The position numbers were made by a program, and so were the translations under genes. A DNA stretch of 64,000 nucleotides from Selaginella moellendorffii (Eukaryota; Plantae; Lycopodiophyta): assembly GCF_000143415.4 (NCBI RefSeq), contig NW_003314268.1:2372494-2436493 (forward strand). The letters are read 5' to 3'. Shown piece by piece: positions 2,663 through 48,129 of this stretch (the first letter of the stretch is position 1; each line of letters starts with the position of its first letter). The notes below the pieces were generated by a model. It saw only the letters and a program-made list of their open reading frames with translations, was not told the DNA's origin and ran no database searches.

Positions 2663-2798
2663 GGCGCTCCTCGATGCGTCAAAATTTCCACGAGCTGATC
2701 AAATAACCCTCGTCTAAACCTTATAAAACTGGATATACCTTCTTTCAACTGGATGGAGGATATACCGAGTGGCGCATTTTAGGGTTTATGGATCCGGG

Positions 2799-17455: not shown

Positions 17456-20050
17456 TTAACTCCCTCTCAGTCCAGACATGTGCTTCTTCAAGGACAAGTC
17501 CTTTTTGTTGTGGTTCTTTTTGGTCGCAAACTGCGGCCTGTATGGTGGCTTTCCCCTTTCCCCGTGAGCACGATGTTGCGTTGCAGCAGAGGTACCCTTC
17601 GCTGTCTCCTTGTCATCTTCTCCTCCGTCATCTTCTTCCTTGTCATCTTCACCATCAGAATTTGCGGGAACGTTACCACCCCGACCAAGCCCGTAGATGA
17701 GTCCCTCCTCCTGCTTTTTCAAGGCCTCCGCTTCTTCCAGACTCGAGACTGCCACGGCGCCAGCGACTTTGTAGTTGTAGTGCTTCCCGTCTTTAACAAA
17801 GAATCGTGACGCTTCCTGCTTTCGTTGCGGCCTTCCAGACGGTTCTTGTTTCTGGCTCGCAGAGAAAGGCTTGGCTTTTTGTCCGTCCTCCAAAGAATCT
17901 GAAGAAAGTTTTGTGCGGGAAAACAGATTCACCAGGCTGTCTGTCTCGAGACCCGCCTCCGCCACGTTCGTATCAAGGTCGTCAAAAGAATCGTCATACT
18001 CGTCTTCATACATCAGCTGCATTGCTAGCTTTGCCGTCTGATTGGACGTGCCGGCATCTCGTTCGTCAAGAATGGTGGCTGCATCGTCGTCCCTGTTTTG
18101 TCTCTTTCTTACGAACCGCCCCTGTGCTTTGCTTGCTTGGTTTTCGACAGCTTTCCCTTTCCCTTTCGCATCGACGTTGCTTCTATCTTCTTTCTTTGAG
18201 TCGACGAGCTTCCCTTTACCTTTTTTCGGTGTGGAGGTCAGGTCGGGGTGAATAGTGCCTTCCAAAATATGCTGAATAACGATCTCGGGATTGCTGTCGT
18301 ACACCTCAAGGCATGCTGAAAGGAACGCGTCATCGTAGTCAGGGAGCAAGTCTTTGATCTGACTGATATGTGACTGACGAATAGCGTCCTCTTCATCCTT
18401 TTCGTGAGAAACACTGACTGGTGGCTTTCTGTCTTCAACAAAATTTGTCGAAGGCATATCAGGTAGCAAAGCAAGTAACTGGGCATATTGGCCATCATCG
18501 AGAACAATTGAGCCTTGATAAGAAAGAAGAGCAACGGGTCAGGAAAGACAATGCATAAACTAAGCACGTACCTTCTTGAAGAAGCCTATGAACGTTCCCA
18601 GACAAGTCAAACATGTTGGATAGGGAATGTATTAAACTAGCTCCGTCGCTGCCGAATGAAAGGCCAATCAGCGCGTCCACAAAGACCTCTCCATTGGCTT
18701 TGGAATCCATCCGAGTCGTTGTATCTCCAAAGAAGGAATTGAAAAGAAGGCTCCAGGCAAAATGCACAAGCTCCCGTTGGAGTGTGTCCAGATATCGAGA
18801 AAGCTCTTCTCCAATAGATTGTTTCCTTACTGACGGCAGCAGCGAGTTGTAGACACACGATAAAGAGAACATTAGACTCTTGTCTCTACTGCACATAAAA
18901 ATAACTATTAGCAAACAGAAAGAGTGAAACCTCGGCTTACGCAGGCTCTGCCGACAAGAAAAAACCCGCTGCAGGAGGATAAATCTCAACAAAAGCGTTT
19001 AGTGTCATCACTGTATCGTGCAATAAGACTACAGCCTGTTACAATCAGTGTGAGTGGACAAAAGAGGACCAATGGCAAACCACTCAAACCTCCATAAGCT
19101 CGTCCTTGAATTCTGAGTTGGATTTGTTGGTTGAATGTCCAATGCTCTAGAGAATACGAGTCAGCCAATCACATCAAGCATGCAAATCATACCTCGAGAG
19201 TGCGCTTATTAACTCCATCGATCGTAGCAAGGACTTGACGAGCAACGTCAGAAAGGGTCTGCAAATACGAAGGCTGGAACTTCAATACGGTACTAACCTT
19301 CAAACAAAATTCACTTTCAGAACACACAAAATGAAACTCAGAGTCCAGATTTACAGTACCAATCTCCGCGTCAACTCCGGATTGTCGTGTCCATAGATCG
19401 CGCAAACATTCAAGAGCTTTGCCACATTAAACTTGTCCTCCACACGAAACTTAGCTATCAAAAACTACAAACGCTTGTATCGACCAAAGGCAGAAGAAAG
19501 CACATACATACCTGCACTAATCCTGGACAAACCAGGATCTTCGTCAGAGCACCTGGTTGATCCAATCGAGAGTGAAAGAAGAAGATGACATTTGAGCTTA
19601 CATCCGGAGAAGCACCATAAAAACTCGTCGGCTCAGATCGTCTTCTCCAGGCACCACTCCGCCAGTCGGATGAAGATCGTACCATCGCCTTCGATAAAGC
19701 AAGTAGCTTTCTAGAAACTCATGCAAAGACTCATTCGCAGTAACTAAAGCAAGGAAATAAAAAAACAACAAAGCGTCAGTCACAAAATGCAGCAAAAAAT
19801 CCATACCTTCTTCCCAAAACTCCCGCGCCTTCATTCTCAAAAGCCGGCTGAGCTCTGCGTTGAGAAAATCGATAATCTCTAGCGCTTGCGAGGAATTCGC
19901 CTCATCCTGCGGCAAATACGCTACAAACACCAACCCCGGCTTGCAATACCTGCCATTCTCGGATAAATCCGAAGGCCTCGTCGCCGGATCCCTCGCCTTC
20001 CACTCCATCGCCGGCGAGTTCCTCGCCTGGTACTGCCGGCGCTGCGCCAT
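17456..20050 (-). CDS. ASCC2: Activating signal cointegrator 1 complex subunit 2 (CUE domain)
   Basis: N-terminal FVAYLPQDE...FLESYL...RRVFMVLLRM, CUE domain ISQIKDLLPDYDDAFLSACLEVYDSNPEIVIQHILEG, and YEDEYDDSFDD. Confidence 0.88.
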
Positions 20051-20896: not shown

Positions 20897-21037
20897 TGTA
20901 AGCAACCAAAGAGAATGACTCAAAATATGATTTGTTCGGGTTCAAATATAGAGGGAAAAACCCCATGAACAAGAGTGCACCCCCTTTTTTAATAGGTCAA
21001 AAGTCTTAGGGTTATGTGTCCTTGGTTTTATATAACA
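20897..21037 (+). mobile_element. Decayed copy of the 5S-type (Cassandra-like) LTR family, lacking the 5S core
   Basis: TGTAAGCAACCAAAG...GGGTTCAAATATAGAGGGAAA...CATGAACAAGAGTGCACCCCCTTTT matches the reverse complement of 40138-40331. Confidence 0.7.
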
Positions 21038-22018
21038 TATTTAGTTTTCACTCTTTATTCTATGGTGATTTATTATAGGATAACCATAAAGTAGAACTTA
21101 AACCCTTTATATGCCATGTGTTACATACTATATGCCATATGCTATATGTCAAAGGATAGTGGAGTGGAACTCAAATTTCAAGGCATTAAACTATTAAATA
21201 AAGGGATAGAGCCAAACTCTTAAGCATGGAGCTAAAGAGCAAAGGTGACTCCCAAGCATACAACCCAAGAAGTGAAAGAACAAAAGTATAAAGCAATTTG
21301 GAATAGATTTAGAGCATCTAATATCTTAATGCTAGGATCAGTATGCAAAATATTGTCTAGTGCTATTTTAGTATACCAATGGCTTAAGATGAGGGTATGA
21401 GTATTCCACCAGCTAACATGGTGTAGAACTTGGGTTTAGACCTAAGCCAAATGTAAAACAAAGACAGATAAGCAAACAAGAGTTATAATATGCTTTAGGT
21501 TGGTCGGCCATGCCTGACCTACTTATTATTATCCCTATTGTACATTTGGAATCCCCCACAAGCCCCCCCTACCCCACCATGCTTTGAGCTTTCACCCTTA
21601 GCCACCCATAGTACTAAGAGTTAGTTTTTCGGAAGATATGCTAAATTAACAGATCTAGACACTTTTTATAAATAATAATTTGGACCTGAATAGGACTAAC
21701 ACAAAGGGCATGATAGCAAGGGTGTTTAGCAAACACAATAAGCTATCATTTAGCAAATATTGAGGGATCCGGGCCAAATATATTTAGCTAAATAGACCCT
21801 TAAGAATTCCTTTTTTATGCTCCTTTGGCCAAGTATTGGTGTTAAGTCAAATTTACTAACACTTAAATAAGAGGGACTGATAAAGGGTCTACAATACTGA
21901 CTTCTTGCCATAGTAGTAGTAAGGAAAGAATATATGAAAGGACTATCTAATAAATAACTTTCGATACCCACAATCACATTCGTGAAAATTTAAATAATAC
22001 TAAGCTATGTGACCTCTC

Positions 22019-22177
22019 TGTAAGCTTCTGAATTTCAAACCCAAAGACACTTAACCCTAAGTATCTCAAAACCCTTAACCTATTGGAAAAGGGGGTGCAC
22101 TCTTATTTATTGGCTCTTTCCCTATATATTTGAACCCCATCGATCATCTCTTAAATCATTCTGTTTGGTTACTTACA
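22019..22177 (-). mobile_element. Solo-LTR-like decayed copy of the same family; keeps only the A-box-like part of the 5S core
   Basis: TGTAAG...CTTACA termini. AAAACCCTTAACC.ATTGGAAAAGGGGGTGCACTCTT aligns colinearly with 40138-40331. Confidence 0.75.
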
Positions 22178-25330: not shown

Positions 25331-25828
25331 GTGGATGATTTGGTGTTAATTTGTTTTTATGTGGTTTATTTAAAGGGCTTTTTGCTCAGTACAAGGGGTT
25401 GTATTGAGTGTTGTAACAAGTTTGACCACAAGTTTATGAAGTTTGGTATAATGGTTAATAAGCAGATTCTTTATAAATTGTGTATATGCAGCAATTGAAA
25501 CATTTTATATAAAGGGATCAAGAACAATAATGTAGCGCATGTGATCATGAGATGAGATTTGGATATACTGTCACCGTGGATCCTTGGAACCTTGGGGGAT
25601 AAATGGGGATAAAATAGCCACTAAGGGCTCTCTCATCAAGCAATTGCCCCTTTTCCAGTTGGCTTAAGGGGAAAGAGATAAGGTGCGCTACAGTTGGTAT
25701 CAAAGCAAATGGCACGGGTTCGATTCCCATTAATTAGTGGCTACTTAAAAGTATAATATACCCTTGAGCAAGGTATATTCCTACCCCTAAATTTGAAATC
25801 GTACGTATTAGACATCCATACATATGTC

Positions 25829-25982
25829 TTTCCTCTTGTGTGGAGTATCCATAGATGAAGGTATTCACCGTGGGACTGCGGTCCTTCCTCTTGTGTGGAG
25901 TATCCATAGATGAAGGTATTCACCGTGGGACTCCAAACTGCAATCCTTCCTCTTCTGTGGAGTATCCATAGATGAAGGTATT
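25829..25982 (+). repeat. About 56-62 bp tandem repeat inside the TRIM, continued at 41693-41766 after the chromovirus insertion
   Basis: Unit TTCCTCTTGTGTGGAGTATCCATAGATGAAGGTATTCACCGTGGGACT, about four copies in total. The third copy is split at GTATT. Confidence 0.9.
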
Positions 25983-27139
25983 TGTAAGCCACAAATTTTT
26001 CCTTTCCAATTTGCCAGCTTACCTCGTCTATCCGACCAACTCTGCCTTGGCTTGTGCTAAATTCCCTTGCCAAGGTTCCCGCCTATGGTACCAGCTCCTA
26101 CTTGGTCCTACTTGGTTTCAGCTACTCACTGCACGAGCAACGGAGTGTTAGCCATCCATCTACGGATTCCCAAATCTCTCCCAATCCCCTTCCCTGGGTT
26201 AGACTGGACTTAAGGTTCGGCTACACTCCCCGCAGGCACAAGCAGCCAAGCACACCAAGCCTCCAGATTCCTAACACCCCTTGGTACCACAAGACTTGAT
26301 CATGGGACCCTCTAAATCCCAAGTCTTGGGTGCAGCACTTGCTTTGGGACGTCGGGGCGAAACACCATGGCCTAACGGCCCGATATAAGTACCTCTACCC
26401 CCCCACTTCCATCCCGAAGGGAAGGCCCAAGCCCCTAGGGAGGGCGAGGACCAATGAGCCACAAGGTACTCAAGTGGGGCACCATTCCACATGAGCCGGG
26501 AGCACCGCAGTCAGTTTCCCTTTCGGGAGTGGGAGCTGCTCTTGAGCACTTCCCTGGGTGGCCCCTCCGGCACAACTCAAGCCCATGCTCACTCCCACCC
26601 AAGGCCCCTCGGTCCCAGTCTCAACCTCAAGTCAGTTTGGAAGCACCATTGGAGAGTTCCTTCAAGACTGGTTTCTGGGCCTCACTATCCCTACTATACT
26701 TTTGGAACCCCCTGCAGCCCCCCCCCTGGGAGACGCACGCTTTGGGCTTTCACCCCTTGACCCGTATTAGTATTTGGACTTAGTCTCTGGCTCGATCTCG
26801 GACCCGATTTCGGATCCGACTTCGGATTCGGTCTCGGACTCGATCTCGGACACGATCTCGGACCCGATCTCGGACCCGACCTCGGACTCGACCTTGGACT
26901 CGGTCTCGGACCCGATTTCGGATCTTGGACTCCGTCTCGAACTCGGTCTCGAACTCGAACTCGAACTCGGTCCCCGAGTGGGTCTCGAACTCGATTCCGG
27001 ACTCTATCTCGAACTCAGTCCTAGAGTCGGTCTTGGACTCGATCTTCGACTTGGTCCCATCCGATGAACTCTTTGTCATTTTGGTCATGCTTTTGGGGTT
27101 CCTTTAGCCTACGACACCTCGGCGAGTTGGTTCCTTACA
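25983..27139 (-). repeat. 3' LTR of element A (contains a degenerate 6/12-bp CTCGGA-type array at about 26790-27050)
   Basis: Direct repeat of 40538-41692, differing by scattered substitutions (mostly transitions) and small indels. Confidence 0.95.
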
Positions 27140-27542: not shown

Positions 27543-30500
27543 TTAATTGAATTTTGCATAAGTACATAGAGTTCTGCCTTGCAGAAATTCCTCCACTAGA
27601 TCTCGCACGTTCGCTAGGTTCTCCTCTGGTTCCCATGTTGCTTCGCAGTGTGGAAATCCTTTCCATTTCACATGGAACTCTCTCACCTCGCGTCCTTGTG
27701 GCTTGCTCCTGCGCGCATTGAGGATAGCCTCGACTTCGTATTCCTTTTCCCCTTGGATAACCTCAGGTAAAGGTCTCACTTGGTCCTTGCGAAGCGGATC
27801 CTCAAAGTACGGCTTGAGTAAGTTCACGTGGAACACTGGGTGCATCTTCCCCATCTCTCGAGGAAGTCGGAGTCAGTAAGCCACTTTACCGATTCGTGCC
27901 TCAATCTCATAAGGCCCCGCGAACTTGCTTAAGGAACTCAAGATCAATTCATTTACAGGAATACATGCATCTTTACCTTTGGGTCAACTTTCGGCTGATC
28001 CACTTGGTAGTCTGAGGTTCTTGGTGTTCAGCCACACCTTCTCCCCCAGCTTGGAACTCTACATCCCGATGCTTCTGGTTCACGTATTTGGTTTGCCTTT
28101 GTTGAGCCCGTTCCAAGGAATCCCTCACTAGATTCCAAATGCTGAGTCTTTCCGCCGTGAATGCCTCCACTGCGGGCAACTCTCCATGATACTCGGCCAC
28201 GCCGAGTTCCACAGGACCTTCAATAGCTTGCCCATTGATGACTTCCCATGGACTCACCCCGATACTCGAATGTGGTGAGTTGTTATAACACATTTCCGCA
28301 AGTCCCAAATGACTTACCCAATCGGTCTGGTCTCCCGAGACATAGCATCGCAAATAATCCTCCAACTGCCTATTCACCCTTTCCGTTTGTCCGTCTGTCA
28401 AGAAGTGTTAGTGCCAACAACTTGACTTAATACCCCATACCTGTCTGTGGGTGATAGGCTGTGCTGAATTTCAACTTGGTGCGATACTGTTCGAGGAGAG
28501 TCCTCCAGAACCTACTGGTGAAGATCTTATCTCGATCTGAGATGATCTCTTCTGGTCTTCCCCGCACTCGAACCACTTGCTCGAGGAACAACTTTGCCAC
28601 ACCTTCCGCATCCACTTCTGTTGTGGTGGGTATGAAATGTGCCATTTTCGAAAATCGGTCCACCACCACGAATATCGCATCAAACCCCTCGCTTGGGGGG
28701 AGTCCCGTGATGAAGTCCATCGTAAGACATTTCCACGGACGATCTGGAATTGGGATGCTTTGCAACAAGCCCCCACTAGCCTTATGCACGGCTTTTACCT
28801 GCTGATATGTTGGACATGTCTTTACATAGTCTTGGATGTCCTTAACCATATCTGGCCAATGGTACTTCCTCTTGAGTAAGCCCATCATCTTGGGCACTCC
28901 ACCGTGTCCCGCAAGAGGTCTGTCATGACACTCTTCTAAGGCCACCTTCCTTAGTTCCCCTTCTGGAATATACACCCTTGTTTGCTTATAATAGATGAGT
29001 CCGTTGCGTTTCGCATAGCCCGTTTTCTCTTCCGTTGGCAGCTCACCTCTCTGGTGAGCTTCCCACGCCTCTAGATTCCTCAGCAACACTTCTTGTGCTA
29101 GACCATCATTCTCATATGCTGTCCGCACATCGTCCCAGAAGGTTGTTGTTGTGCTGGATATTGCCAACCTCAAGCTCGCTTTTTGAATTAGCACATCCGC
29201 CACGATATTGCTCTTCCTAGGCTTGTACAGAATCTCGCAATCAAACTTGGCCAAGGCATTGGCCCACCGACCTTGTTTCCCTCTCAGGTCGGGCTGTGAC
29301 AAGAAGTGTTTCATTGCCACATTGTCCGTGTAAACCTTGAAGTGTCTCCCAAGGTAGTGTCGCCACTCCTTGAGCGCCTTGACCACCGCAAACAATTCCT
29401 TTTTATGGGCAGGCCACTTCCGTTGAGCCTTGTCCAACTTCTTCGAGAAGAACGCTACCGGATGGTTGTCTTGCTTCAAAACTGCGCCCAACGCAAAGTC
29501 CGAAGCATCCATTTCTACCTCAAAGTCCTTACCAAAGTCTGGTAATGCCAATACGGGAGCCTTCCTCAACTTCCCTTTGAGGTGGACGAATGCCGCCTCG
29601 CATTCCGCTGTCCACACCATTTTCCCTTTTTCTGTTTGGTCCGTTAAGGGCAGGGCTACTCTCGAATAGTGTCTGATAAACTTTCAATAGTAGTTGCATA
29701 GCCCTAGGAATGCCCTCAACTCGTGTACATTCGATGGTCGCTCCCATTCCTGGATCGCTTGGACCTTCTCCGGGTCCACCTTGAGCCCATCCTGGCCCAC
29801 CACATGCCCTAGAAACTTTACCTCTTGTTGAGCAAAGTCACATTTGCTCTCTTTAGCATACAGTTTGTGTTCCTTTAGTTTCTCAAACACCTTCGCCAAG
29901 TGTTCGGCATGCTCCTCTAGCGTCTCGCTATAGATCAGGATGTCGTCAATATAGACAACCACGAAGTGATCCAGATAGGGTACAAAGATGTGGTTCATTA
30001 GCGCCGAAAACGTTGCCGGCGCATTACATAGCCCGAAGGGCATCACCAGAAACTCAAAGCTCCCATACCTCGTTCGACAGGTTGTCTTCTCGACATCTTC
30101 CTTGGCTACCCTGATTTGGTAGTATCCTGACCTTAGTTCAATCCTCGAGAAGTATTTTGCCTTTCCCAATCTATCGAACAGGTCCTCAATCCTTGGCAAA
30201 GAGTACTTGTTCTTCTTTGTATACTTGTTGAGCAACCGGTAGTCTATGCACATGCGCATAGATCCATCTTTCTTTTTCACAAATAACACCGGCGCCCCAT
30301 ACGGCGACTTGCTCAACCTAACATACCCTTTGTCCACCAACTCCTCTAGTTGGCACTTGAGCTCCTTGAGTTCTTTTTCGTTCAAACAATAAGGGGGACG
30401 AACCATTGCCTCATCACCCTCGACCAGCTCAATCTTATGTTCTATCGGTTGTGTTGGGGGTAGCCCCGCCGGTAGCTCCTCTGGCATGGTATCCTAGAAT

Positions 30501-31917
30501 TGGTCCAACACCCGCTGGATCACTAAAGGTACTTCTTCCATTTCGGTCTTTTTGTCACTCTTCACCGAGAGTAAGCACAAAAAGACTGCCTTAGTTCCTT
30601 TAGTGAGCTGTCCTCTCGTGGACACCAGGTTTAAGCAGGAATCTTTGGCCTTACTTTGCCCTACCTTTAGATCTTGGGCCTCCACCCTAGATCTTCTTCC
30701 TTGTGCATTCGCCAGTACCACAAGGTTTCTACCTTGTCCATGCAGGGCTACCACGAATCGATTGAACCAGTCCATTCCGAAGATCACGTTAAATCCCGCC
30801 ATGTCCAACACGGTGAAATCCATGTCCACCTTCCAAGTCCCCACTTCGACTCTCGCTTGTCGAAGTACCTCATCGGTGCTTTGGCTACCTTGAACAAACT
30901 TTATAGTCCTTGGTTCGCCTAGCCGTTGCACCGTTAGTCCGGCTTGCCAGACTATGTCTGCAGCCACAAAATTATCCGAAGCACCCGTGTCAATAAGGAT
31001 ATTAACAAAGCTACCTCCGAGCTTCCCTCGGAGGGCTAGTAGATGTCACGAACGACTCTCTACCAAAGTTGCTCGTGTAATGAGTAACTTTGAGTTAGGG
31101 ACTGGATCACATACCTCATTTTGGACTCCACCCGACTTGATGGCCATATTGGCTCTGGCCTTCTTCGGGTAGGGACATTCCCTCGAGAAGTGTCCCGCTT
31201 CACCGCAATTGTAGCATACGTTATTTCCCACGCTGCTATACGACTTGACCTTCTTATCCGTGGATTTGTCTCTTTTCGCTTGACACCCCCACGTACTCGC
31301 TCGCTGGCCACCAGATCTGCCTTTCCGGAACCCCGAGGACTCATTCTTAGAGAAACTCTTCTTGAATTTCCCTCTGCTAAACGTTCCCCTTGGTTTGGCC
31401 CCTTTGCTAAATATGGATCCCGACCCCGTCGTGTTCCCCTTTCGCAAGTTATCGTTGAAATGCACCTTGATGGCCGCATCCAACGCTTCCTTATAGTTGG
31501 TCGGGTTCCACCGCATTACTTCGCCGCAAGCCCAGGTTTGCAAACCTGATATGAAGGCATGGAACGCATCCATATCCCCCATGTCTGTGACAAGTATTCT
31601 CTTTTCCATAAACCCATTCACATACTCCTGAATGGTTCCGGTCTGCTTCAGCCTACTCAGCTCGTCCCTTAGATGTAGAGTAGCATTCGGAGGAACGTAA
31701 GTTGTGCGGATCCTCACCTTCATCATTTCCCAAGTGGCCACCGGTCCTTCGTTAGCCTCTGTCATTCTCCACCAAGACTTGGCATTATCTGCCAAGTATG
31801 GTTTTGCACATGGGACCTTCTCCGAGCTCGGTAATCGCAACGCTCGGAAGTAGTCCTCCATATCGTAAAACCAATCCTCCACCACCTTATAGTCGTTCAC
31901 TCCCTTGAAGACCGGTG
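27543..31917 (-). pseudogene. Disrupted gag-pol of element A: gag C-terminal half with zinc knuckle, protease, RT, RNase H, integrase, chromodomain
   Basis: CYNCGEAGHFSREC, LIDTGASDNF, YIDD, DASDFALGAVL, HHCC zinc finger (ECHD...GH...CPTY, last Cys lost), MDFI...SDRD...GQTE, GPY and YEVEAIL...VKWKGFPHCEATWEPEENL. Premature stops at 31046, 30494, 29684 and about 27874 each fit a CGA/CAG to TGA/TAG change. Confidence 0.95.
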
Positions 31918-32921
31918 TGTAAGCGACTAATTTTTCCGTTCTACTTTAGTCACTTAACCACACCTCCAACCACTTAGAGGAGTCTCATTCACAACCTCCA
32001 TAAGTCCAATTTAGGACTTGGGACTTGCTAGCCCCAAGAATGGCATCCATGCCACTCCACACTTGCACCTGGTCCAAGTGCTCCACGTGTCCGGTCCCAA
32101 GACCGACACCCAAAGGTACCACTGACATCTCGGCCCGTTACGCTAAGGCCATGCCCATTCACCTTTGCTGCACTAGTGATCCAATACCATTTGCATCACC
32201 ATCCCGTCTCTCCAAGACTGGGCCATCTGTCCACGAGTGGTCATCCTGGATCCACTCCTTAGCATCCTTAGGATGCCCACAGACCTGGGGAATCGCCTTC
32301 CCGAAAGTTCCTTTGTCAGTTCCTACCAAGTCCCTTTCTGCCCCTAGCCGTGTTTGCCAACACTGCCACTGGATCGAGGCCCACAGGCCCGACCACTAAG
32401 TCCCATGGTCCTCTGGGACTTCTTCACCACACGACTGTGTCCTTGGTCACTACCCCAGAGGACTGCTCCTCTTCCTTTCCACAGTCTAGGCCTTTGGGAC
32501 AACATTTCGGAACACCGTGGCCTTACGCGAGCCACCTGGGTACTCTCCCCGCCTTTCGCCTTTAGGTGCTCTAGCCATGGGCTTAGAGCGAGGTTCCGTT
32601 GAGCCACGCCTGGTATCCAAGTAGGTAGTGCCACCCACACTTGGACTGGGAGCATCGGCCAGTCGATCTCCCGGGGGAACTAGAGCCGGCTCTTGAACAC
32701 TTCACCAAGCTACCCCGCTTGTCGGTCCGTATTCACTCTAGTCTTGGACTTCCCAGTGGTCAGTTCATCACCCAACACTGGGTCTGGCCTTCCTGGGCCA
32801 AACTAGCCTTTCCTGGCCAAACTGGCTCCACTGCAGTCCTCCCCCTACTATACTTTTGGAGCTCACCAAACCCCCCAGGGTCTGGGAGACGAACGCTTTG
32901 GGCTTTCACCCTCTCAGGCTC

Positions 32922-33050
32922 CGGACTCGGACTCGGACTCGGACTCGGACTCGGACTCGGACTCGGACTCGGACTCGGACTTGGATTCGGACTCGGACTC
33001 GGGCTCGGGCTCGGTCTCGGCCTCGGCCTCGGTCTCGGTCTCGGTCCCGA

Positions 33051-33084
<34 letters not shown>

Positions 33085-33480
33085 AGCTCTGGCTCTGGCC
33101 TCGGACTCCATCTCGGACTCCATCTCGGACTCCATCTCGGACTCCATCTCGGACTCCATCTCGGGTCCATCTCGGGTCCATCTCGGACTCCATCTTGGAC
33201 TCCATCTCGGGTCCATCTCGGACTCCATCTCGGACTCCATTTCGGGTCCATCTCGGGTCCACCTCGGACTCCATCTCGGACTCCATCTCGGACTCCATCT
33301 CGGGTCCACCTCGGACTCCACTTCGGACTCCATCTCGAACTCCATCTCGGGTCCATCTCGGACTCCACTTCGGACTTCAACTCGGGTCCATCTCGGACTC
33401 CACTTCGGACTCCAACTCGGGTCCATCTCGGACTCCAACTCGGGTCCATCTCGGACTCCAACTCGAGTCCATCTCGGACA
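32922..33480. repeat. (GGACTC)n/(GGTCTC)n hexamer plus (GGACTCCATCTC)n 12-mer array in the left LTR of B
   Basis: Directly visible tandem array. Confidence 0.95.
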
Positions 33481-36400
33481 CTCCCACGTGTCATGTGTTG
33501 GTCCTTTTGGGTCCCTTTTTGGAGCCTCACTTCGTGCTCGTTCCTCGAGCCCTTCTTTGGGAGTTCCACTCCCGCTCTTGACTTTTCAAGTCGGAGCTTT
33601 TGGTCCAACCGTGTTACGCTCGTTTGGCTCTCGCTTCAGCCACTACCACGTGGCACCCTTTCCGGCTCCACTTTGGGGGCTAGGGATTTTGTGTCTCACA
33701 ACTCCACCACCCATAGACAAAGTTCGATGTCCTCATCGAACGGTAAACCCTTTCATAAAGTAACACCCACACGTGTTACCATTTCCATCCTTGGCACCTA
33801 GTCAATCTTTGTCTATGGTTTGACACCAAAGGCTCACCATGCCTTGTCCATCCTTTAAGGAGCGTAGTCTTTCCAACTTAGAGACTGATTGGACCACATG
33901 TAATGGTTCTCTCCTTTTATTGGTTTAGTGCTCGCTAAACCTCTTAGAGACCCTTCTCTAAGTCAATCCCACTACTCCTTCTCGAGTAGTCTCAATTTCC
34001 ATCGATATAACCTCCGCACTTTGGAACTTTGAAGTTTGACTCCTTGGAGTCAATTTCCTAGGTGTCTCCGACACCTTGCCTTGCACCTTTTGTGCAACTC
34101 CACTTCCCTTCCTAGAAAGTTCTCTACTCGAGGGCACCATCATCCTCTCTTCTATTTCGTGCCAAAGTTCCAGTTATCATACTTTGTGCTAGGGCTGTTC
34201 ATGGCCCTATCATTTGGCTACCTTACCGCTCCCTCCCTTGGAGCTTCCACTTTTGCCAAACCGGAGCATTTCGGAATCCCTCCTTGGAAACACACTTCCT
34301 TTCCCGCAACTTGTTAGCGTCCAACACATTAGTGTTCCTCGCCTAACTTTGTCACTTGGATTCCCCCCAAGGGATTCCACGGCCCTATCTTGGCCACTCA
34401 TCTTTTGCTCCTATCCGTTGATTGTTGCACCAAGCAACATCGAATCTCTACCTCCCTCCTTGAGGTATTGTTTCGGTTCCATAGCAAAGACTCTTCTTTG
34501 CCAAGTCCGGAGGATGTTCACCCCTAGTACGTCTCTTTAGCATCTTCTGCTATGGGCTCTATCCACGGCCCAACTTCGTGACCCTCCCATGGGTCTTTTA
34601 TAGAGACTACTTTCCTCGGACTCACTATGCCATCTCACGGACTTAGTTTATTCCCCTTAGGTGCTCTTCCCACTTGGTCATCACGACCAAGCCACATCAC
34701 CTTAAACAGTTCAATTTCAACATTTTGAACCAGGAACTTCATTCCTTAGCCAACCAAGGACCTTGTCCTTATCTGGCCATAAGATCACCTAGTGATCTCA
34801 CCTTGGCACCTTAACAGAGTTGCCAAGAGGTACTTGGTCTTCTAGACCTCCAAGTTGTTGACTATAACCCCGGGGGCATCCCCCACACTTGGCGGTGCAC
34901 CCAAGCCAGCCCTTACGGCCAAGGGTTCATAGCAACTGAGATTAGGTGTCCCCATCTCACTCACCACGACCTTGGTGCCACTTGCACCAAAGCGTTCAAG
35001 TTAGATATGCTGAGCTTTCACACTAAGCAATCTAACCGTGCATCATGACTCCGAGGCATCCCTCGCTTGGCGGTGTGCCCAAACCAGTCTCCCCACTGAG
35101 AGTCCATGACCACCGAAATATGAGTGTCCTCATATTCCAAACCATCACCACGCCCTAGTGATTTGGGACTCGAACCCAAGCACTAGAGGGTCGGGACTCG
35201 AACCCAACCTCCGTATATGCATCTACAGACGGCATCACACAAGATGCCTGGCGTGACTCCCCACGCCGGTGCACCAACTTATTTTTAAAGCGCGCTACAG
35301 ATCACAGCTTAGGAACCTAGTTCCTCCACACTGCCAAGTCCTCTCACTTGACATGTCTGTGATCATGCATGGACTCCTCCATGCTCGGCCCCATGGCCCA
35401 CCCTTTTTGAAGTTATCACCTTCAACTAGGGTATTTGTTCCCCCAACGTGCCAATCTCGCTTGGCAAGTCCTCCGACCACTATAACATAGTTCCTGCATA
35501 AGCGTGAAAGTCCTTGACCATCGACTTTCGTTCAAAGCCCTCTCTTTGAACACTCGGGAACTACTTCCCTAACCTTGATAACCTTGCCTCATTGCAAGCT
35601 TCAAGACCACGCTTCTGCTGCGCCACTCTGATTTCGCGCGTTCCATGAACCATTTACACTTGGCCTTTCTAGGTACTAAGCTACCTAGAATCGTCTTTGG
35701 GAACCTTGAAGGAACTCTATCCTTCAGCTTGCTAAGGCCTCCCTTTTTCCAAGCCTTCCAAATGCCACATAGTCTAACATAGACAATTCCATATTTTAGA
35801 CTCTCCATGGCATCACGGTTGCTAGCGGCAACACCCTTGAGCCCCCACTTGATTCTCCACTCCCAGCTGGCATAACCAACCTTGGTTATGCCCTTTAATT
35901 CCTATGGTTCGGTTCTATCCCCTTACTTCTTGCTTTTTGGCTTCACACCTTTCCTTTGGTCATTCTCCTTCAGACCAGGAGGATAGCTTTGCACTTTCTA
36001 TCATGCTTTAGCAAGTATTCTTAGGGATGAACCTACTTAATAGCCTAGGGAGTGGTTCCTCAATCCGGGTATGCTCACCTTATAATCCCACACACTGGGA
36101 TTACATTGTTGCTTATGGGCCTTTACATGCCCATCACTAGCCTTGCCAAAATTCCATTTTTGGCTTTGTCCAACTCGGGTAGACAGTCCTCTCCTGTCTC
36201 CGCAACCTTGGACATTTGGATAGCACCTTCTATCCATCATTCGCTAGGGACTTAGTCCCTTGGGCTTTATCCATTGCCCTCGCGACATCAAACACCACCT
36301 TCTGGTGTTCTAGAGTGTTCGGGTGTCCCAATGATGGCTTTCTTGACAATGAGTATTTCCTTTTATGACATTGACTTACTATATCGCAACACAAGCAACT

Positions 36401-38765
36401 TATCCCCCGTAAAGGTATATCCAACTTCCCTATGCTATTAAGAAGTCTTGGGTAGCTACCTTCTACCCGTTTAACCAGTTATTTTGCACCTCTTGCTTAG
36501 TTGCCTCATAGTTGTCAAGTCCTACAACTCATTGCTTGGTGCTTTCACACCTCCATCATTATCTGGGTCACCACACTCCAACTGCATGCTCTGCAACTTA
36601 GGCTATGCTATTCCCATTTCCATTGGGATTCCTTTGGCAAGGGGTTCTCATGAACCCACCAACATAGCCTCAAGGTATCACCCCTTGGCACATTTGGTGT
36701 CTCCACACCATCGGCTCCACGAGCCTACCTCTATGACATTTCCCCTTCGTGTCTAAGTCTTTGCCAAGACCAACACCGCTCTTTCTTATGCCAACCGTTA
36801 GCACTGCACCATAGAGGTCACACACAACTTTATGTCAAAGTTGTTTTCTTCTGGGAACACCTTTCCCATAACTTTAGCATGGCACATTCTGCCATTGATG
36901 AGATACCCTCTGTTCTCATCCTTGGATCCTATGATCCCCCCCCATCCTTTGTGGGGTACAACACACCTCAGTCCAAATGCTTCCATCAGTCCTTTTAGGA
37001 CCATCCGTTGACTCTACTTGAGTCATCCAACAGTTTTGGACTTGGTTAATCCACAGACCCGTAAGGTCCTACTTGTGAGGCACTAGCTCACTGGAATACA
37101 CTTCTTGCATTCCTGTCCTACTCAAAAGGACTATTTTCACAAGTGTTACTCCGACACTTGATTTTGTTCTCTGGGGGCAACCTTTGCCCCTTAGGACTAC
37201 TTGTCCATGTGATGAGAACACCAACTCATCCACTTAATACATCCCCAACTCCTTGGGTTGTTCCAGCATTTATTAGAGGTAGCCCCGGCTACCTTTTCAA
37301 GGGCTTGAGTCCTCTTCCATATTTGACCTCCCACGGTCATTACTTCTGGTCTCACATTCATGAGCACCAACCTCAACTATATGAGGAAAATCTTGTGACT
37401 CCTTTATTGCTTTGGAGTCTTTATCTTTCCCGTGATCCCAACTGTAGTTGTTTACCACAACTACATTAGCCAGTTTGCTAAGTCAAACGCTCATCTAGAT
37501 CACATCCTCAACTTTTTTTTTTTTTTTTGAGGAAAACCTTGCACTGTTCCCAAGATCCCAAAGTCGTTCCATTATTGGCCCCTTTTCTATACACCACCTT
37601 GTCTACAAGTTCACACATGAACTGTAATGGAGAGCCATGTCTTCCCGACCTGCTACTCCTCAAGGATAGGCCCACTTCTCGGACCTTCCATTACCAACAC
37701 CAGTGGTGATATACTTGAGCACCAATAAAAGTCGGACTAAGGAACAGCTCCGATACCAAGTTGTGAGCGACTAATTTTTCCGTTCTACTTTAGTCACTTA
37801 ACCACACCTCCAACCACTTAGAGGAGTCTCATTCACAACCTCCATAAGTCCAATTTAGGACTTGGGACTTGCTAGCCCCAAGAATGGCATCCATGCCACT
37901 CCACACTTGCACCTGGTCCAAGTGCTCCACGTGTCCGGTCCCAAGACCGACACCCAAAGGTACCACTGACATCTCGGCCCGTTACGCTAAGGCCATGCCC
38001 ATTCACCTTTGCTGCACTAGTGATCCAATACCATTTGCATCACCATCCCGTCTCTCCAAGACTGGGCCATCTGTCCACGAGTGGTCATCCTGGATCCACT
38101 CCTTAGCATCCTTAGGATGCCCACAGACCTGGGGAATCGCCTTCCCGAAAGTTCCTTTGTCAGTTCCTACCAAGTCCCTTTCTGCCCCTAGCCGTGTTTG
38201 CCAACACTGCCACTGGATCGAGGCCCACAGGCCCGACCACTAAGTCCCATGGTCCTCTGGGACTTCTTCACCACACGACTGTGTCCTTGGTCACTACCCC
38301 AGAGGACTGCTCCTCTTCCTTTCCACAGTCTAGGCCTTTGGGACAACATTTCGGAACACCGTGGCCTTACGCGAGCCACCTGGGTACTCTCCCCGCCTTT
38401 CGCCTTTAGGTGCTCTAGCCATGGGCTTAGAGCGAGGTTCCGTTGAGCCACGCCTGGTATCCAAGTAGGTAGTGCCACCCACACTTGGACTGGGAGCATC
38501 GGCCAGTCGATCTCCCGGGGGAACTAGAGCCGGCTCTTGAACACTTCACCAAGCTACCCCGCTTGTCGGTCCGTATTCACTCTAGTCTTGGACTTCCCAG
38601 TGGTCAGTTCATCACCCAACACTGGGTCTGGCCTTCCTGGGCCAAACTAGCCTTTCCTGGCCAAACTGGCTCCACTGCAGTCCTCCCCCTACTATACTTT
38701 TGGAGCTCACCAAACCCCCCAGGGTCTGGGAGACGAACGCTTTGGGCTTTCACCCTCTCAGGCTC

Positions 38766-38894
38766 CGGACTCGGACTCGGACTCGGACTCGGACTCGGAC
38801 TCGGACTCGGACTCGGACTCGGACTTGGATTCGGACTCGGACTCGGGCTCGGGCTCGGTCTCGGCCTCGGCCTCGGTCTCGGTCTCGGTCCCGA

Positions 38895-38926
<32 letters not shown>

Positions 38927-39416
38927 CCGGTCTCGGTCTCGACTTCGGACTCCATCTCGGACTCCATCTCGGACTCCATCTCGGACTCCATCTCGGACTC
39001 CATCTCGGGTCCATCTCGGGTCCATCTCGGACTCCATCTTGGACTCCATCTCGGGTCCATCTCGGACTCCATCTCGGACTCCATTTCGGGTCCATCTCGG
39101 GTCCACCTCGGACTCCATCTCGGACTCCATCTCGGACTCCATCTCGGGTCCATCTCGGACTCCACCTCGGACTCCAACTCGGGTCCATCTCGGGTCCACC
39201 TCGGACTCCACTTCGGACTCTATCTCGGGTCCATCTCGGGTCCACCTCGGACTCCACTTCGGACTCCATCTCGAACTCCATCTCGGGTCCATCTCGGACT
39301 CCACTTCGGACTTCAACTCGGGTCCATCTCGGACTCCACTTCGGACTCCAACTCGGGTCCATCTCGGACTCCAACTCGGGTCCATCTCGGACTCCAACTC
39401 GAGTCCATCTCGGACA
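38766..39416. repeat. The same array in the right LTR of B, with more copies
   Basis: Directly visible; accounts for the roughly 90-bp LTR length difference. Confidence 0.95.
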
Positions 39417-39636
39417 CTCCCACGTGTCATGTGTTGGTCCTTTTGGGTCCCTTTTTGGAGCCTCACTTCGTGCTCGTTCCTCGAGCCCTTCTTTGGGAGT
39501 TCCACTCCCGCTCTTGACTTTTCAAGTCGGAGCTTTTGGTCCAACCGTGTTACGCTCGTTTGGCTCTCGCTTCAGCCACTACCACGTGGCACCCTTTCCG
39601 GCTCCACTTTGGGGGCTAGGGATTTTGTGTCTCACA

Positions 39637-40079
39637 CGGTGGGGGCTTTGGTTTGTACTTGGGAACTACCTGAGGGACTGATTCCACTTCGGTCTGTTCG
39701 ACCTTGTCTGGTTTTGCCTCAGTCTCTGCCGAAGGGTCCGCACCTTCTGCGCTGTCAGCATCCGCAGTCTTTCGCTTTTTCTTCCGCTTCTCATCACGCT
39801 TCAGCTTGCGTACGAGTTTTTCTTCCGCTTCTCATCACGCTTCAGCTTGTGTACGAGAGTCTCTAGCAGGGCATTGGTCTGTGCCAATTGTCCTTCTAGA
39901 ACGTCCAATCGAGCCTTGGATGACCAAACCTCACCACCAGACTCCTGTTTGGAAGTTGCCTCACTGGAGTCCTCCTCATGCAAGGATTCCTCATCCATAG
40001 CCTCTTGTTCGACCGGAGGCTCCAGCTCTGGAGGAGGTTCCGTCTCTGCCTGGGTTCGCTTACGTCCTGCCCTTGCCAT
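39637..40079 (-). pseudogene. N-terminal gag of element A, frameshifted by a 41-bp tandem duplication
   Basis: ATG at 40079 (MARAGRKR...), coiled-coil RLDVLEGQLAQTNALLETLV. Duplicated units at 39776-39816 and 39817-39857. The frame continues to ...VPKYKPKPPP at the B insertion site. Confidence 0.85.
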
Positions 40080-40137: not shown

Positions 40138-40331
40138 TGTAAGCTCCTAAATTTGGACTTCCCGGGAGGTCACCCAGCCCAGTACTACTCAAACTCAAGG
40201 ATGCTTAACTCCAACTATCCCAAAACCCTTAACCGATTGGAAAAGGGGGTGCACTCTTGTTCATGGGCCCTTTCCCTCTATATTTGAACCCTATGGATCG
40301 TCTCTCAAGTCGTTCCCTTTGGTTGCTTACA
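40138..40331 (-). mobile_element. Internal 194-bp Cassandra-like LTR carrying the 5S rRNA internal promoter core (40155-40210)
   Basis: TGTAAGC...GCTTACA inverted termini. The minus strand reads AGTTAAGCATCCTTGAGTTTGAGTAGTACTGGGCTGGGTGACCTCCCGGGAAGTCC, colinear with the plant 5S A-box/IE/C-box region. It is followed by PBS TGGTATCAGAGC (40135-40124) and preceded by PPT-like GGGAAGCGTGGTGGAT. Confidence 0.9.
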
Positions 40332-40537
40332 ATCCACCACGCTTCCCTGCAAGTTCACGCCCTCGTGAACGGAAGCTGAGAGCCGCAGCTCTCCCGAGAG
40401 CCCCGCTCTCTTGACACCCTACCCCTCGAGTCGAGCCCAGCGGGAGCAAACTGGACCAGCCAGATGTCAATCAATATGTGGTGTGATTCCCTTAGCCAAC
40501 CAGCAGAGTCGGACCCGAGACCGCTCCGATACCAAAT

Positions 40538-41692
40538 TGTAAGCCACAAATTTTTCCTTTCCAATTTGCCAGCTTACCTCGTCTATCCGACCAACTCTGC
40601 CTTGGCTTGTGCTAAATTCCCTCGCCAAGGTTCCCGCCTATGGTACCAGCTCCTACTTGGTCCTACTTGGTTTCAGCTACTCACTGCACGAGCAACAGAG
40701 TGTTAGCCATCCATCTACGGATTCCCAAATCTCTCCCAATCCCCCTCCCTGGGTTAGACTGGACTTAAGGTTCGGCTACACTCCCCGCAGGCACAAGCAG
40801 CCAAGCACACCAAGCCTCCAGATTCCTAACACCCCTTGGTATCACAAGACTTGATCATGGGACCCTCTAAATCCCAAGTCTTGGGTGCAGCACTTGCTTC
40901 GGGACGTTGGGGCGAAACACCGTGGCCTAACGGCCCGATATAAGTACCTCTACCCCCCCACTTCCATCCCGAAGGGAAGGCCCAAGCCCCTAGGGAGGGC
41001 GAGGACCAATGAGCCACAAGGTACTCAAGTGGGGCACCACTCCACATGAGCCAGGAGCACTGCAGTCGGTTTCCCTTTCGGGAGTGGGAGCTGCTCTTGA
41101 GCACTTCCCTGGGTGGCCCCTCCGGCATAACTCAAGCCCATGCTCACTCCCACCCAAGGCCCCTCGATCCCAGTCTCAACCTCAAGTCAGTTTGGAAGCA
41201 CCATTGGAGAGTTCCTTCAAGACTGGTTTCTGGGCCTCACTATCCCTACTATACTTTTGGAACCCCCCTGCAGCCCCCCCCCCCGGGAGACGCACGCTTT
41301 GGGATTTCACCCCTTGACCCGTATTAGTATTTTAGTATTTGGACTTAGTCTCTGGCTCGATCTCGGACCCGATTTCGGATCCGACTTCGGATTCAGTCTC
41401 GGACTCGATCTCGGACCCGATCTCGGACCCGACCTCGGACTTGACCTCGGACTCGGTCTCGGACCCGATTTCGGATCTTGGACTCCGTCTCGAACTCGGT
41501 CTCGAACTCGGACTTGAACTCGGTCCCCGAGTCAGTCTCGGACTCGATTCCGGACTCTATCTCGAACTCGGTCCTAAAGTCGGTCTTGGACTCGATCTTC
41601 GACTTGGTCCCATCCGATGAACTCTTTGTCATTTTGGTCATGCTTTTGGGGTTCCTTTAGCCTACGACACCTCGGCGAGTTGGTTCTTTACA
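40538..41692 (-). repeat. 5' LTR of element A
   Basis: Direct repeat of 25983-27139, adjacent to the PBS. Confidence 0.95.
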
Positions 41693-43473
41693 GTATTCAC
41701 CGTGGGACTGCGGTCCTTCCTCTTGTGTGAAGTATCCATAGATGAAGGTATCCACCGTGGGACTACGGTGCGGGTGGATAACTAGTTGCCTCACATGGAA
41801 TAGCTAATCTATACAATGGAAGGATTAGTAGATTGAGTCCGGAAATGGAGATGTTGGTTATGAGGACATTGATATATTTAACTAAGGGCTCTTTCATTAA
41901 GGAATTGCCCATTTTCCAGTTGGCTTAAAGGGAAAGAGATAAGGTGCACTACAAATAAGCACCATCTACAAATCAATCAGTACCTCCTCTTAATGTTCTT
42001 CTAGATCCTAATTTATCATCCAGAGAATCTTAATTGCCTTTCATCCTTCCAGAAAAAGGGGATGATATGAGGTAAGTGCATAATTATTATATTGTATATT
42101 AATATTAGTGTAATAGGAATTTAATAGCTATTAGATTGGTTTTAATTTAGAAACTTGCTCCTATATATAAGCTAGAGTTTTGGGGCTAATTGAATATGCA
42201 TATTCCATTTTTATATTCCTATAATTTTTTATGTTAAAATTATTTTAAAATTTTTAATATTACCTAAATTATATTTCATAAAAATATAAAATATTTTAAT
42301 ATTATATTTTTAGACTACTTTTGGTTCCATTTAATGAACACTTACTAAAGAACATGTTACAAAAAGTAACATATTATATACATTATATTGTAATATATTT
42401 AATAAAGGATAGCCAAAGTCTATTCTATTTTATTTGCTAAGCTGGGTCTAGCAAAGTCAAAGAGCATCTCCTCTCAGTTAGGTAAGATCTATGCTACATT
42501 ATAATGATCATTAATAGTAAGATAATTATTATATTTATGAAGTGTAAGATTAATTTAAAGTAAAGTGTTCTTCTTAGTATGTCATTGTCTTTTTACGTCT
42601 ACTTCTAAAGCAAGGTTGCATGCATTATTGATACATCAAATGATAATTGCAATTCATACTATCAGTGATCCTATTTATGAATGAAAGCAAATAAATGTTT
42701 CATATGACACTTGATATTTCTAATCCTGGTAGACTAAAAATGTTTTCTTGCCATGAATACAAATAAGGATACAAATGAAAAGAAGAAGGAACATATTATA
42801 TAGAGCAAGGTAATTGACTTAAAATATCAATAAAACATGAGATAAGATCTTTAGGCTCACTTAGTTTAGTTAATATTGTCTTCTCATTAACAATAGCACT
42901 TGATTGGCATGATAAAGACCTATCTAACTTGGGAGGTGTGGCATGGGAGAGACATCTTCCTCCCCACCTTAATAGCTTACTCAACTTGCTTTGTAAACTT
43001 AATATAACAAGAATAAATCTTGAGAAGATGTCTCACATCATAGTTAAATTCACTAAATGAAAACTTAAAACCATAATTATTATTAATACTGAATAATTAA
43101 AAATATTATAGATTTTCTAAGGTAAATAGAGAATATAATAATAAGTCTTTCTCAAGAGTAGATAAAGTTTTGTACTATAGTAATAACATAATAAGTAGAT
43201 CAACTCAGGGGTGGTTGAGAGGCTAAAAACTTTGCTAAAGTGTATACGCTTCAAGAGTATCCTAAAATTCTAATGCCAAAACTAACTCCAAAAACGTAAA
43301 AATAAAGTAAGGTACAATTCAAGTATATATATGGTGTAACACCAACACTAATTAGGATGGTAATGAAGCAACATAACAAGTTGTGAAGCCAAACAATGAG
43401 AAGAATAAAATAATAGAGTGTGGAGCCAAACTAAACCAACAAAAGAAATGAAAATTTATTTATTTATTTTATT

Positions 43474-45751: not shown

Positions 45752-48129
45752 ATGAGCGGCGATAAGCTCTTGAGAATGGATGACGCATTAGAGGCAGTTG
45801 ACAAGTGGGTAAATCAGGGCTATGTTGTAGATGAGAAGAAGATCACGGCGTTGATAATGTATCTCACAGAAGGCCCTGGTAAGCTCCAGCCACAGGAGTA
45901 CCGCACTGAGAAGCCAAAGCCAACCCTGATGGCAATTGCAGCTACATGGTGGAAGCAGCAGAAATGGAAAGGGAAATTGGAGTTTCAGAAAGAGTTTCAG
46001 AAAGAGTTTCAGAAGGGGGAGTTCGAGTTTCAGAAAGAGTTTCAGAGACGGAAATTGGAGTTTGAGAAAGAGTTATTGGAGTTAAAGAAAGGGCAATTCG
46101 AGTTGAAGAAAGCGGAGTTGGAGTTTAAGAAAAGAATGGAAAAAGAAGAAGAGGAGAGGAGGATATTAGTAACAGTCATAAAAAATGCTCATACCATTTC
46201 TGACATGGAGAAGTTCTCTGACAGTGAAGCTGCTGACTTCCACAAGCTTGTACTGGATAAGTGGAATCCTTTGCATCAACTCCTGCGTGGCAATATTGAT
46301 TTACATGCAATACGGTGGAGATCGTTTCTGCCCAAGCCACTCGGTATGTTTATTTGTTTATTATTTGTTTTGTTTAAAACTTTGTTTCCACACTTGCATT
46401 AGAATTTCATAGGAGCCAAACCACATTTGGAAGTAGATATGTGCTCGACAAACTCAACCAAGAGGGAATCCAAAAAAGCTGGGACCAAATCAAAAGAGAT
46501 GTTTATGCAGACTATAAGGGAAGAGGCTTTGAACATTTACAAGTTTCATATCTGGAAGCTACGGAGCCTGATCAGCTTGGTACTGTTTTCGTTTCTTCTT
46601 TCTTCTTTGTTACAAATCCTTGTCCTTGAATGCAGGGAAGAGCATGTATGCCTGTGATGAGACTTACGCAGAGGTCAGAGTCAAACACTACGCTGCCTAT
46701 GGCGTTTGTTTTGCAGCGCTGTTGGAAAGTATCTTTCGGGTCCTTGACAAAGACAAAGGTCTGCCTACAATTTCGGTGAAGGTTCTGGCCCCAGTTCACA
46801 CATCAAACGGGAAGCTAGAGGTTGAAGTCGAAAGGTCGAGTTTGAGGTGCAGGTTCCTAATAGAGATGAAGAATCTGAAGCGGCAGGGTGATGACATTCA
46901 GGAGGAGACGAGGGCGAAGAAAAACAGGGTGTCGTCGTCTGACCAGAAAAGCGACGAAAGTGAGGAGAACAAAAGCATAAGCAAGAAAAATCAGCCTATT
47001 GTTCTCAGCAACAATAATCAGAGTGAGCCTCTACAAAAGGCTCGAGGCCAAATTGGCGAAGTTCACGTGGAAAGGCAGTTTCAGCAGGTTCAGAGCGGGT
47101 TTGTCAACGGCATGCATGTTACAATCGTCCACCGGACTGACTCCACCAAATCCGAAGATCATTTCAGCGCCAGCCGGATACTGAAAGTCATGGAGAGTAG
47201 CGACATAAAGATAGGAGAGGCCAGGAGTTTAGATATGGATTCAAGGGGGGTCGATCAAATCCTCAAAGAGCTAGTTATTGCTCTGATTAAAGCCGGGTTC
47301 CTGCCACAGACTCTGCTTCAAGGTGATGTTAGTGGTGCTGCCGGGTTGAGAGCAGAGAGAATGGAAGTAAGTGTTGATGAAGAACAGCTAGTTAAACCGG
47401 TTAAGGCTGAGGCAGCTGAGATAGAGCACCGGTATCTATTCCCCGTGACAATCCATGGATCGGGATTGAAAGCCTGGATTAAAGCGGCAACAGTAGGTGA
47501 CCAGTACAAGCAGGTTCAGCGAGAGCTTTTAATTCGTCAGTATCTGTGTCCAGAGGACTCTGTGAAGGCGAGGGCAGTAGTCTGGAGAGGGGTTCCTGCG
47601 TTACTCTTGGAAGATGCGGGACAGAAAATCAACACAGACACGATGACGCCTGAGGACGTTTTCAATATGACAAAGGCCATTTATATGGTACTTTCTCATG
47701 TGTATGGTGAGCATGGGATTTTGCACAATGATGTTGCACCCCGCAACATCTGCCGAGACGAAAAGGGACGTTACCGACTTATTGACTGGGGATTGGCAAG
47801 CCGGCTTCCCGATATTGATCATCCCACAAATATACCTGATTGGCTTTATTCAGGTACTTAACTTTTTTTCTGGAGTTTGGTAACTGATTGTTCTTTATGC
47901 AGGTTCTTGCTTTTTCTCTGGAAGTCAAACTCCAAGAATCCATTCCGATTTAGAAAGCCTGGTGTATGTGGCACTTGACTGTCTCCATGTACCATTGCCA
48001 TGGGGAAATGCAGCCAATGGTTCTGATGTTATTAAGATCCGCAGAAGATTCCGGAGCAACTTGAACTCCTCAGTGTTGAATGCTTTGTATCGACCACTGC
48101 TCAAAGCATGGTTAGAGCTAGAGATCTGA
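45752..48129 (+). CDS. Lineage-specific coiled-coil + putative PD-(D/E)xK-like + divergent protein kinase (FunK1/Crinkler-type kinase-like), 4 exons
   Basis: Introns at about 46344-46402, 46580-46636 and 47854-47902 keep the frame. Kinase motifs are AWIK, RE, HNDVAPRNI, LIDWGLA, SDLESLVYV and LPW. Central FLIEMK; N-terminal EFQK repeats. Confidence 0.75.

Follow-up and report, generated by a model that had tools for sequence, protein, structure and literature searches.

The window, that is the whole stretch of 64,000 nt of Selaginella moellendorffii DNA analysed here (contig NW_003314268.1, positions 2,372,494 to 2,436,493), carries a PPR gene (2727-4988), an ASCC2-like gene with a CUE domain (17456-19431), an open reading frame with a partial kinase-like match (46572-47861) and, on the minus strand, a long LTR retrotransposon.

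Structure of the element and state of the window copy

According to its Pfam matches the element is a Ty3/Gypsy chromovirus comprising gag, a CCHC knuckle, protease, reverse transcriptase (RT), RNase H, integrase, an SH3-like module and a chromodomain. The domain order gag-PR-RT-RH-integrase-chromodomain is that of chromoviruses, and TG..CA LTRs, a primer site, a purine tract and a 5-bp target duplication are all present. The 5' LTR (40538..41692, minus strand, TG..CA) contains an 11-G tract and is followed by a tRNA-Met-type primer site; the 3' LTR (25983..27139, minus strand) is preceded by the polypurine tract and differs from the 5' LTR by a K2P distance of 0.023. The target duplication AATAC is situated outside both LTRs, and the element was inserted into a 55-bp tandem repeat (25826-25982 and 41693-41760).

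The coding region consists of three exons on the minus strand. The 5' part of exon 1 (39637..40079) comprises the start of gag, is severed from the rest by a nested element and is shifted in frame by a 41-bp tandem duplication. The main part of exon 1 (28441..31912) codes for the remainder of gag, the CCHC knuckle, protease, RT, RNase H, the integrase zinc finger and most of the integrase core, and has private stops at 31048, 30496 and 29686. Exon 2 (27977..28394, 418 nt) supplies the catalytic Glu and the end of the core; near 28043 and 28000 it has a pair of +1/-1 shifts that compensate each other and are private to this copy. Exon 3 (27543..27924) codes for the rest of the GPY/F (SH3-like) module and the chromodomain (Pfam SH3_Tf2-1, E 8.1e-5; Chromo, E 3.8e-16), with a private stop at 27875-27873. 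Because of these four stops, the shifts in exon 2, the 41-bp duplication and the insertion in gag, the window copy is a dead member of its family. From gag to the integrase core the sequence aligns to its relatives in one frame; consequently, no further frame-breaking intron is needed in that part.

The nested element (31918..39636, minus strand) lies inside gag, is younger (target duplication CACCG, LTR K2P 0.004) and is not part of the family structure. No open reading frame of at least 150 aa was found in the 4-kb interior of this 7.7-kb element. Nested and host element have in common the purine tract, the type of primer site, 3' stretches and 12-bp LTR repeats, and the nested element is likely a non-autonomous partner of its host. 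Both nested LTRs show a weak match to SCARNA18 (32717-32777 and 38561-38621, E 0.08), which is probably due to chance.

An extra piece of 397 bp (40140..40536, minus strand) is located between the 5' LTR and gag like a Cassandra-type unit: a short internal stretch, a purine tract, a 193-bp LTR with a 5S-rRNA-like part and a second primer site. The Rfam 5S match (E 0.0058, 31.5 bits) is below the gathering score of 38. This arrangement points to template switching between a 5S TRIM and the host family. Decayed partial copies of the 5S-type LTR unit are present at 20897-21029 and 22035-22177. According to the accessible text of a 2024 paper, Cassandra has no known autonomous partner. We considered whether an unspliced genome RNA might be transcribed by Pol III from the 5S-like LTR and rejected this: the 5277 sense bases contain six runs of at least four T (one of five), and the piece seems to be additional to the published 7.5 kb of the family considered below.

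Two short introns in the integrase gene

The sequence-only reading of the window had proposed a spliceosomal-type intron in the integrase core, and this intron is present as described: 46 nt on the minus strand (28440-28395), GT..CAG, with CTAAC as predicted branch point (28407..28411), whose branch-type A is 14 nt from the 3' end. Its GT donor and AG acceptor are those of a U2-type intron, as is its exact removal from presumed transcripts (see below). The intron separates the region of the second catalytic Asp from the catalytic Glu. Translation confirmed both predicted consequences: when the intron is retained, the frame reads AYHPQTGMGY* with an in-frame stop at 28429-28427, and the catalytic Glu is lost; when it is skipped, the motif is unbroken and the frame reads AYHPQTDGQTERVNRQ. 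The G+C content is 41% in this intron and 33% in the second one described below, compared to 50-51% in the exons. In a folding test the region around intron 1 showed a weak signal (z = -2.06; six of 200 shuffles were equally good).

The same reading had overlooked a second intron of 52 nt (27976-27925, minus strand), situated inside the KLxxRFxGPY (GPY/F) motif of the integrase. With intron 2 skipped the frame reads RKLTQRFAGPYEI. As in U2-type introns, a GT donor is present and removal is exact in three of the four presumed RNA runs; in the window copy the acceptor is substituted, the intron ending in AA through a private change at 27925, where 96% of the depth in the presumed DNA run X1 shows another letter. 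Only a weak branch-like site (TTGAT) was identified. Retention of the introns places a stop ahead of the catalytic Glu, the GPY/F module and the chromodomain.

An uninterrupted HP[QE][TS]DGxxE motif was found in 115 of the 120 long relatives listed. In a pattern scan, all 21 metagenome loci sharing 20 exon bases at the intron 1 site, which belong to unrelated integrases, continue without an insert. Intron 1 is therefore derived.

The family of the element

We compared the element with the published description of SM1-Galahad, a Selaginella moellendorffii chromovirus. According to the sections of Novikov et al. 2012 (PMC3350952) that were accessible, this family has hundreds of copies that are 95% alike and about 7.5 kb long. 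Its Gag-Pol ORF of 3885 bp ends after the integrase core without a chromodomain. Two further ORFs measure 316 and 309 bp, and the chromodomain is encoded by the final, shorter one. The primer site is of the Met type, the LTRs measure 1076/1146 bp with a poly-G of 11-25, and none of the copies known in 2012 was intact.

In the window, the reading frame that starts at the gag ATG and ends at the intron 1 stop measures 3885 bp as well, once the nested insertion and the 41 duplicated bp are subtracted. The next two frames are 318 bp (316 published) and 309 bp (an exact agreement). The LTRs of about 1155 bp and the G tracts of 11 and 9 are close to the published values without being equal to them. 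A total length of about 7550 bp is obtained once the 397-bp piece is also removed, which was our choice. By these sizes and by its anatomy, set against the published description, the window family is likely SM1-Galahad. SM-Tcn1 was considered as the family and rejected; it lacks a primer site and has 440-bp LTRs.

The sister family SM2-Galahad has one intact, uninterrupted ORF of 1577 aa and near-identical LTRs (PMC3350952, accessible sections). After splicing, the window element comprises 1557 codons, which is close to that length. PMC3350952 reports the breaks of SM1-Galahad as additional ORFs, and the words 'intron' and 'splic' occur zero times in its accessible text. The description of SM1-Galahad without intact copies can be explained in part by these intron breaks.

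The introns are kept in DNA and removed from transcripts

Eight of 24 runs were examined. Runs X15-X19 were taken as RNA and X1 as DNA, both presumed, and X4 is of uncertain type. In X1 (14,448 contigs, whose summed depth is not a copy number) the depth over intron 1 amounts to 0.67-0.79 and over intron 2 to 0.71-0.77 of that of the flanking bins. Contig records 6, 7 and 8 of X1 and record 13 of X4 span intron 1, and one-base insertions common to several copies cluster at 28417-28422 within this intron. No intron-less DNA joint was found for either intron among 17 of 20 joints; single-contig deletions at a depth of 109-292 do appear among them. As contigs drop rare variants and the joints are 17 of 20, rare intron-less genomic copies may remain.

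The presumed transcripts gave a different picture. The joint 28394->28441, which skips 46 nt (CT..AC), is present in contigs of X15 and X18, two of the four presumed RNA runs (four studies); this is the splice joint for which the sequence-only reading had asked to look. Contigs of X17 and X19 retain intron 1. A joint skipping the 52 nt of intron 2 was found in X15, X18 and X19, and in X17 no contig bridges intron 2, two contigs ending within it. A single X15 contig of 2500 nt is without both introns; it shows 85 differences from the window copy in about 2000 letters and is free of the breaks of the window copy near 28043, 28000 and 27875. In X22, recorded as an RNA run, one 150-nt mate appears to fit 28291-28394 plus 28441-28486, as judged from bin depths and with no listed joint. 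In the raw RNA runs the family is barely expressed (five and three reads in about 12% of each of two runs), and three of these reads extend over a site within intron 2.

Record 16 of X19, a 1291-nt contig with a depth of 59, spans 27675-28474, lacks intron 2 but retains intron 1, and continues into unrelated sequence at 28474. It is likely a truncated copy transcribed from a neighbouring promoter.

These results show that both introns exist, that they are exactly removed in transcript contigs and that they are present in the DNA of the family. The sequence-only reading had left two alternatives, a gain after insertion and a splice switch. The first would make the insert, an introner or a repair filler, private to the window copy, and the 5-bp direct repeat at the ends of intron 1 speaks in its favour. 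This alternative is refuted, because intron 1 is found family-wide in DNA and the ORF length of the published SM1-Galahad consensus ends at the intron 1 stop; we give it practically no weight. The second alternative fits the data, since family DNA keeps intron 1 and transcripts lose it.

Origin of the introns

The 5-bp direct repeat GACAG on both sides of intron 1 was confirmed in all five bases. The upstream GACAG is ancestral coding sequence, as the metagenome loci show, and CAG is expected at the acceptor of any intron, which leaves no more than two informative bases. The repeat is compatible with a repair event or with an insertion causing a target duplication, but it is mostly expected from coding sequence and splice consensus; the introner-type origin put forward by the sequence-only reading is at most a candidate. 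At the ends of intron 2 the repeat in the window copy is two bases long. A search of intron 1 against the rest of the window gave one weak match (21833-21864, plus strand) with a local score of 37, the best of 30 shuffled queries scoring 34. This match lies near decayed pieces of 5S-type LTRs and could be a source of filler or a chance hit. Intron 2 had no match in the rest of the window.

No close protein relative was found, the best identities being 49% (120 of 1854 examined), 53% (120 of 248) and 46% (150 of 7325), so that the intron gain has no cross-species date. The listed relatives that end near HPQT have no common intron-like ending, and a metagenome scan with exon 2 gave no match.

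Intron gain is easier to explain for DNA whose propagation does not involve a spliced RNA. The introns could thus have been gained in one settled copy or in a domesticated integrase gene and spread by DNA duplication or gene conversion instead of RNA. This is very improbable in our view, as the window copy has a 5-bp target duplication of its own, its LTRs are 2.3% apart and an expressed copy is about 4% away, as expected after retrotransposition; moreover, the family has hundreds of copies (PMC3350952, accessible sections).

Probable selection on the spliced integrase

We classed 47 exon sites, taken from 40 of 245 rows of one table of differences and 40 of 109 rows of another, with classes set post hoc; five intron sites and one site in a frame-shifted stretch were left out. 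Among the sites listed, all 12 that segregate among DNA copies are synonymous, as are 11 of the 13 differences between expressed lineages. Downstream of intron 1, nine of ten lineage differences among these sites are synonymous, compared to 34% expected for transitions (p about 4e-4). Where the window copy differs from nearly all others downstream of intron 1, eight of 17 listed sites are synonymous. Because of the nine synonymous lineage differences in ten, the spliced integrase was likely under selection, suggesting from this small sample that the family made use of exons 2 and 3 while it spread.

These counts bear on another explanation, namely that the family has no working integrase and depends for its mobilisation in trans on an intron-less relative such as SM2-Galahad, with the inserts as spliceable passengers. 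In favour of this, SM2-Galahad has an intact ORF and near-identical LTRs, and an intact SM1 copy was never found, as far as the accessible text of PMC3350952 goes; in addition, the non-coding nested element shows that such mobilisation happens here. On the other hand, each of the two separate inserts has splice ends and leaves an exactly restored frame when removed, the lineage differences listed downstream of intron 1 are largely synonymous, and the chromodomain is kept. We regard mobilisation in trans as improbable.

A possible splice switch

Retrotransposition is classically demonstrated, and followed in reporter assays, by the disappearance of an inserted intron. In a high-copy family, an integrase that needs two splices, together with DNA copies that keep both introns, requires either that spliced RNA is excluded from replication or that selection against daughters without introns is strong. 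The two GT-AG introns of the integrase gene are spliced yet kept in genomic copies, and we think it probable that the element replicates from unspliced RNA, while active integrase is made only from the doubly spliced RNA.

Both introns would have been gained once, in the ancestor of the family. The unspliced RNA would be translated into Gag-PR-RT-RH with a truncated integrase and would be the template for reverse transcription, and the doubly spliced RNA would code for the 1557-codon Gag-Pol with the whole integrase. As gag and pol are in one frame, splicing would limit integrase relative to Gag and RT and could thereby set its dose against both. In the least certain step, a separate RNA pool would prevent the spliced RNA from entering particles or from being reverse-transcribed, in analogy to BARE1 of barley.

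Because intron loss through cDNA is one-way and splicing looks efficient, the persistence of both introns requires that unspliced RNA forms a pool of its own or that daughters without introns are selected against. In the latter case, spliced RNA would be packaged and copied as well, and the intron-less daughters would be unfit (silenced faster, poorly exported or producing an excess of integrase) and would not spread, so that selection among copies maintains the introns. The anatomy would be no bar to copying, as the spliced RNA should retain the primer site, the purine tract and both ends, and the unbranched intron-less contigs of X15 and X18 are consistent with efficient splicing. However, scattered dead-end copies without introns would be expected, and none was seen among the 17 of 20 DNA joints, in which single-contig deletions are visible. 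We consider maintenance by selection alone unlikely and favour, by analogy, the separate unspliced pool. On balance, we lean towards the reading that two ordinary introns in the catalytic and targeting domains of the integrase, kept through hundreds of RNA-mediated copyings, became a switch by which only unspliced RNA is copied and only doubly spliced RNA gives integrase.

The two RNAs differ by only 46 and 52 bases; the choice between message and genome is therefore directly testable. If the proposed switch holds true, the family is a natural system for studying how a retroelement distinguishes its template RNA from its message with 98 bases between them, and it represents an intron gain in a lineage expected to purge introns. 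ORF-based annotation may misclassify such families as defective.

Comparison with known systems

Small introns inside the integrase of an LTR element were not found described in the literature covered, and the supplements of PMC3350952 and PMC6317226 gave no match for the terms queried. Since Repbase and subscription journals, as well as figures, were beyond the scope of the search, these introns may already be annotated in a database. Further context is provided by the accessible parts of PMC2864245, PMC10886601 and PMC4717578.

Several other systems combine introns with integrases or with retroelements. In Penelope-like elements introns survive retrotransposition too, but the mechanism is a non-LTR one with a GIY-YIG endonuclease, and the introns are mostly in the 5' UTR (PMC8557442, in the text accessible). 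Introners (PMC12130899) and GingerRoot (PMC6839031) were considered from the accessible text and rejected, as they do not match an LTR family with RT.

Foamy viruses express pol from a spliced mRNA, but there it is gag that is spliced out and not a small intron. Integrase-type genes with introns occur in Ginger transposons and as domesticated integrases. Neither of the two is known to have an RT or an RNA intermediate, whereas the window element has RT, RNase H and LTRs.

For plant LTR elements, the accessible part of a review published in 2025 singles out Ogre and EVADE as the notable exceptions that bear introns. In the Ty1/Copia elements BARE1, EVADE and copia, splicing to a short Gag likewise sets protein ratios (PMC3735527, PMC5580714). 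For BARE1 the accessible text reports that only an uncapped, unspliced pool is packaged and that there are no DNA copies of the spliced form (PMC3735527). The logic of the short-Gag elements is opposite to that proposed here: their unspliced RNA codes for the whole Pol and splicing destroys it (PMC5580714, PMC7730604, as far as accessible), whereas here splicing creates the whole integrase. Short-Gag splicing takes out or shifts the protease region so that Gag alone is made; the joints observed here, with the gag-protease region outside the read mapping, restore integrase.

In the proposed mode of action the element resembles the Ogre elements of legumes (Ty3/Gypsy, Tat clade), which likewise have a genomic intron that is spliced from part of the transcripts and whose removal is needed for the full polyprotein (PMC6317226, PMC12786077, in the accessible sections). 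The window element departs from the Ogre arrangement, its sequence from gag to the integrase core aligning to relatives in one frame. In contrast to Ogre, it has two introns of 46 and 52 nt that are located inside conserved integrase motifs and would gate integrase alone.
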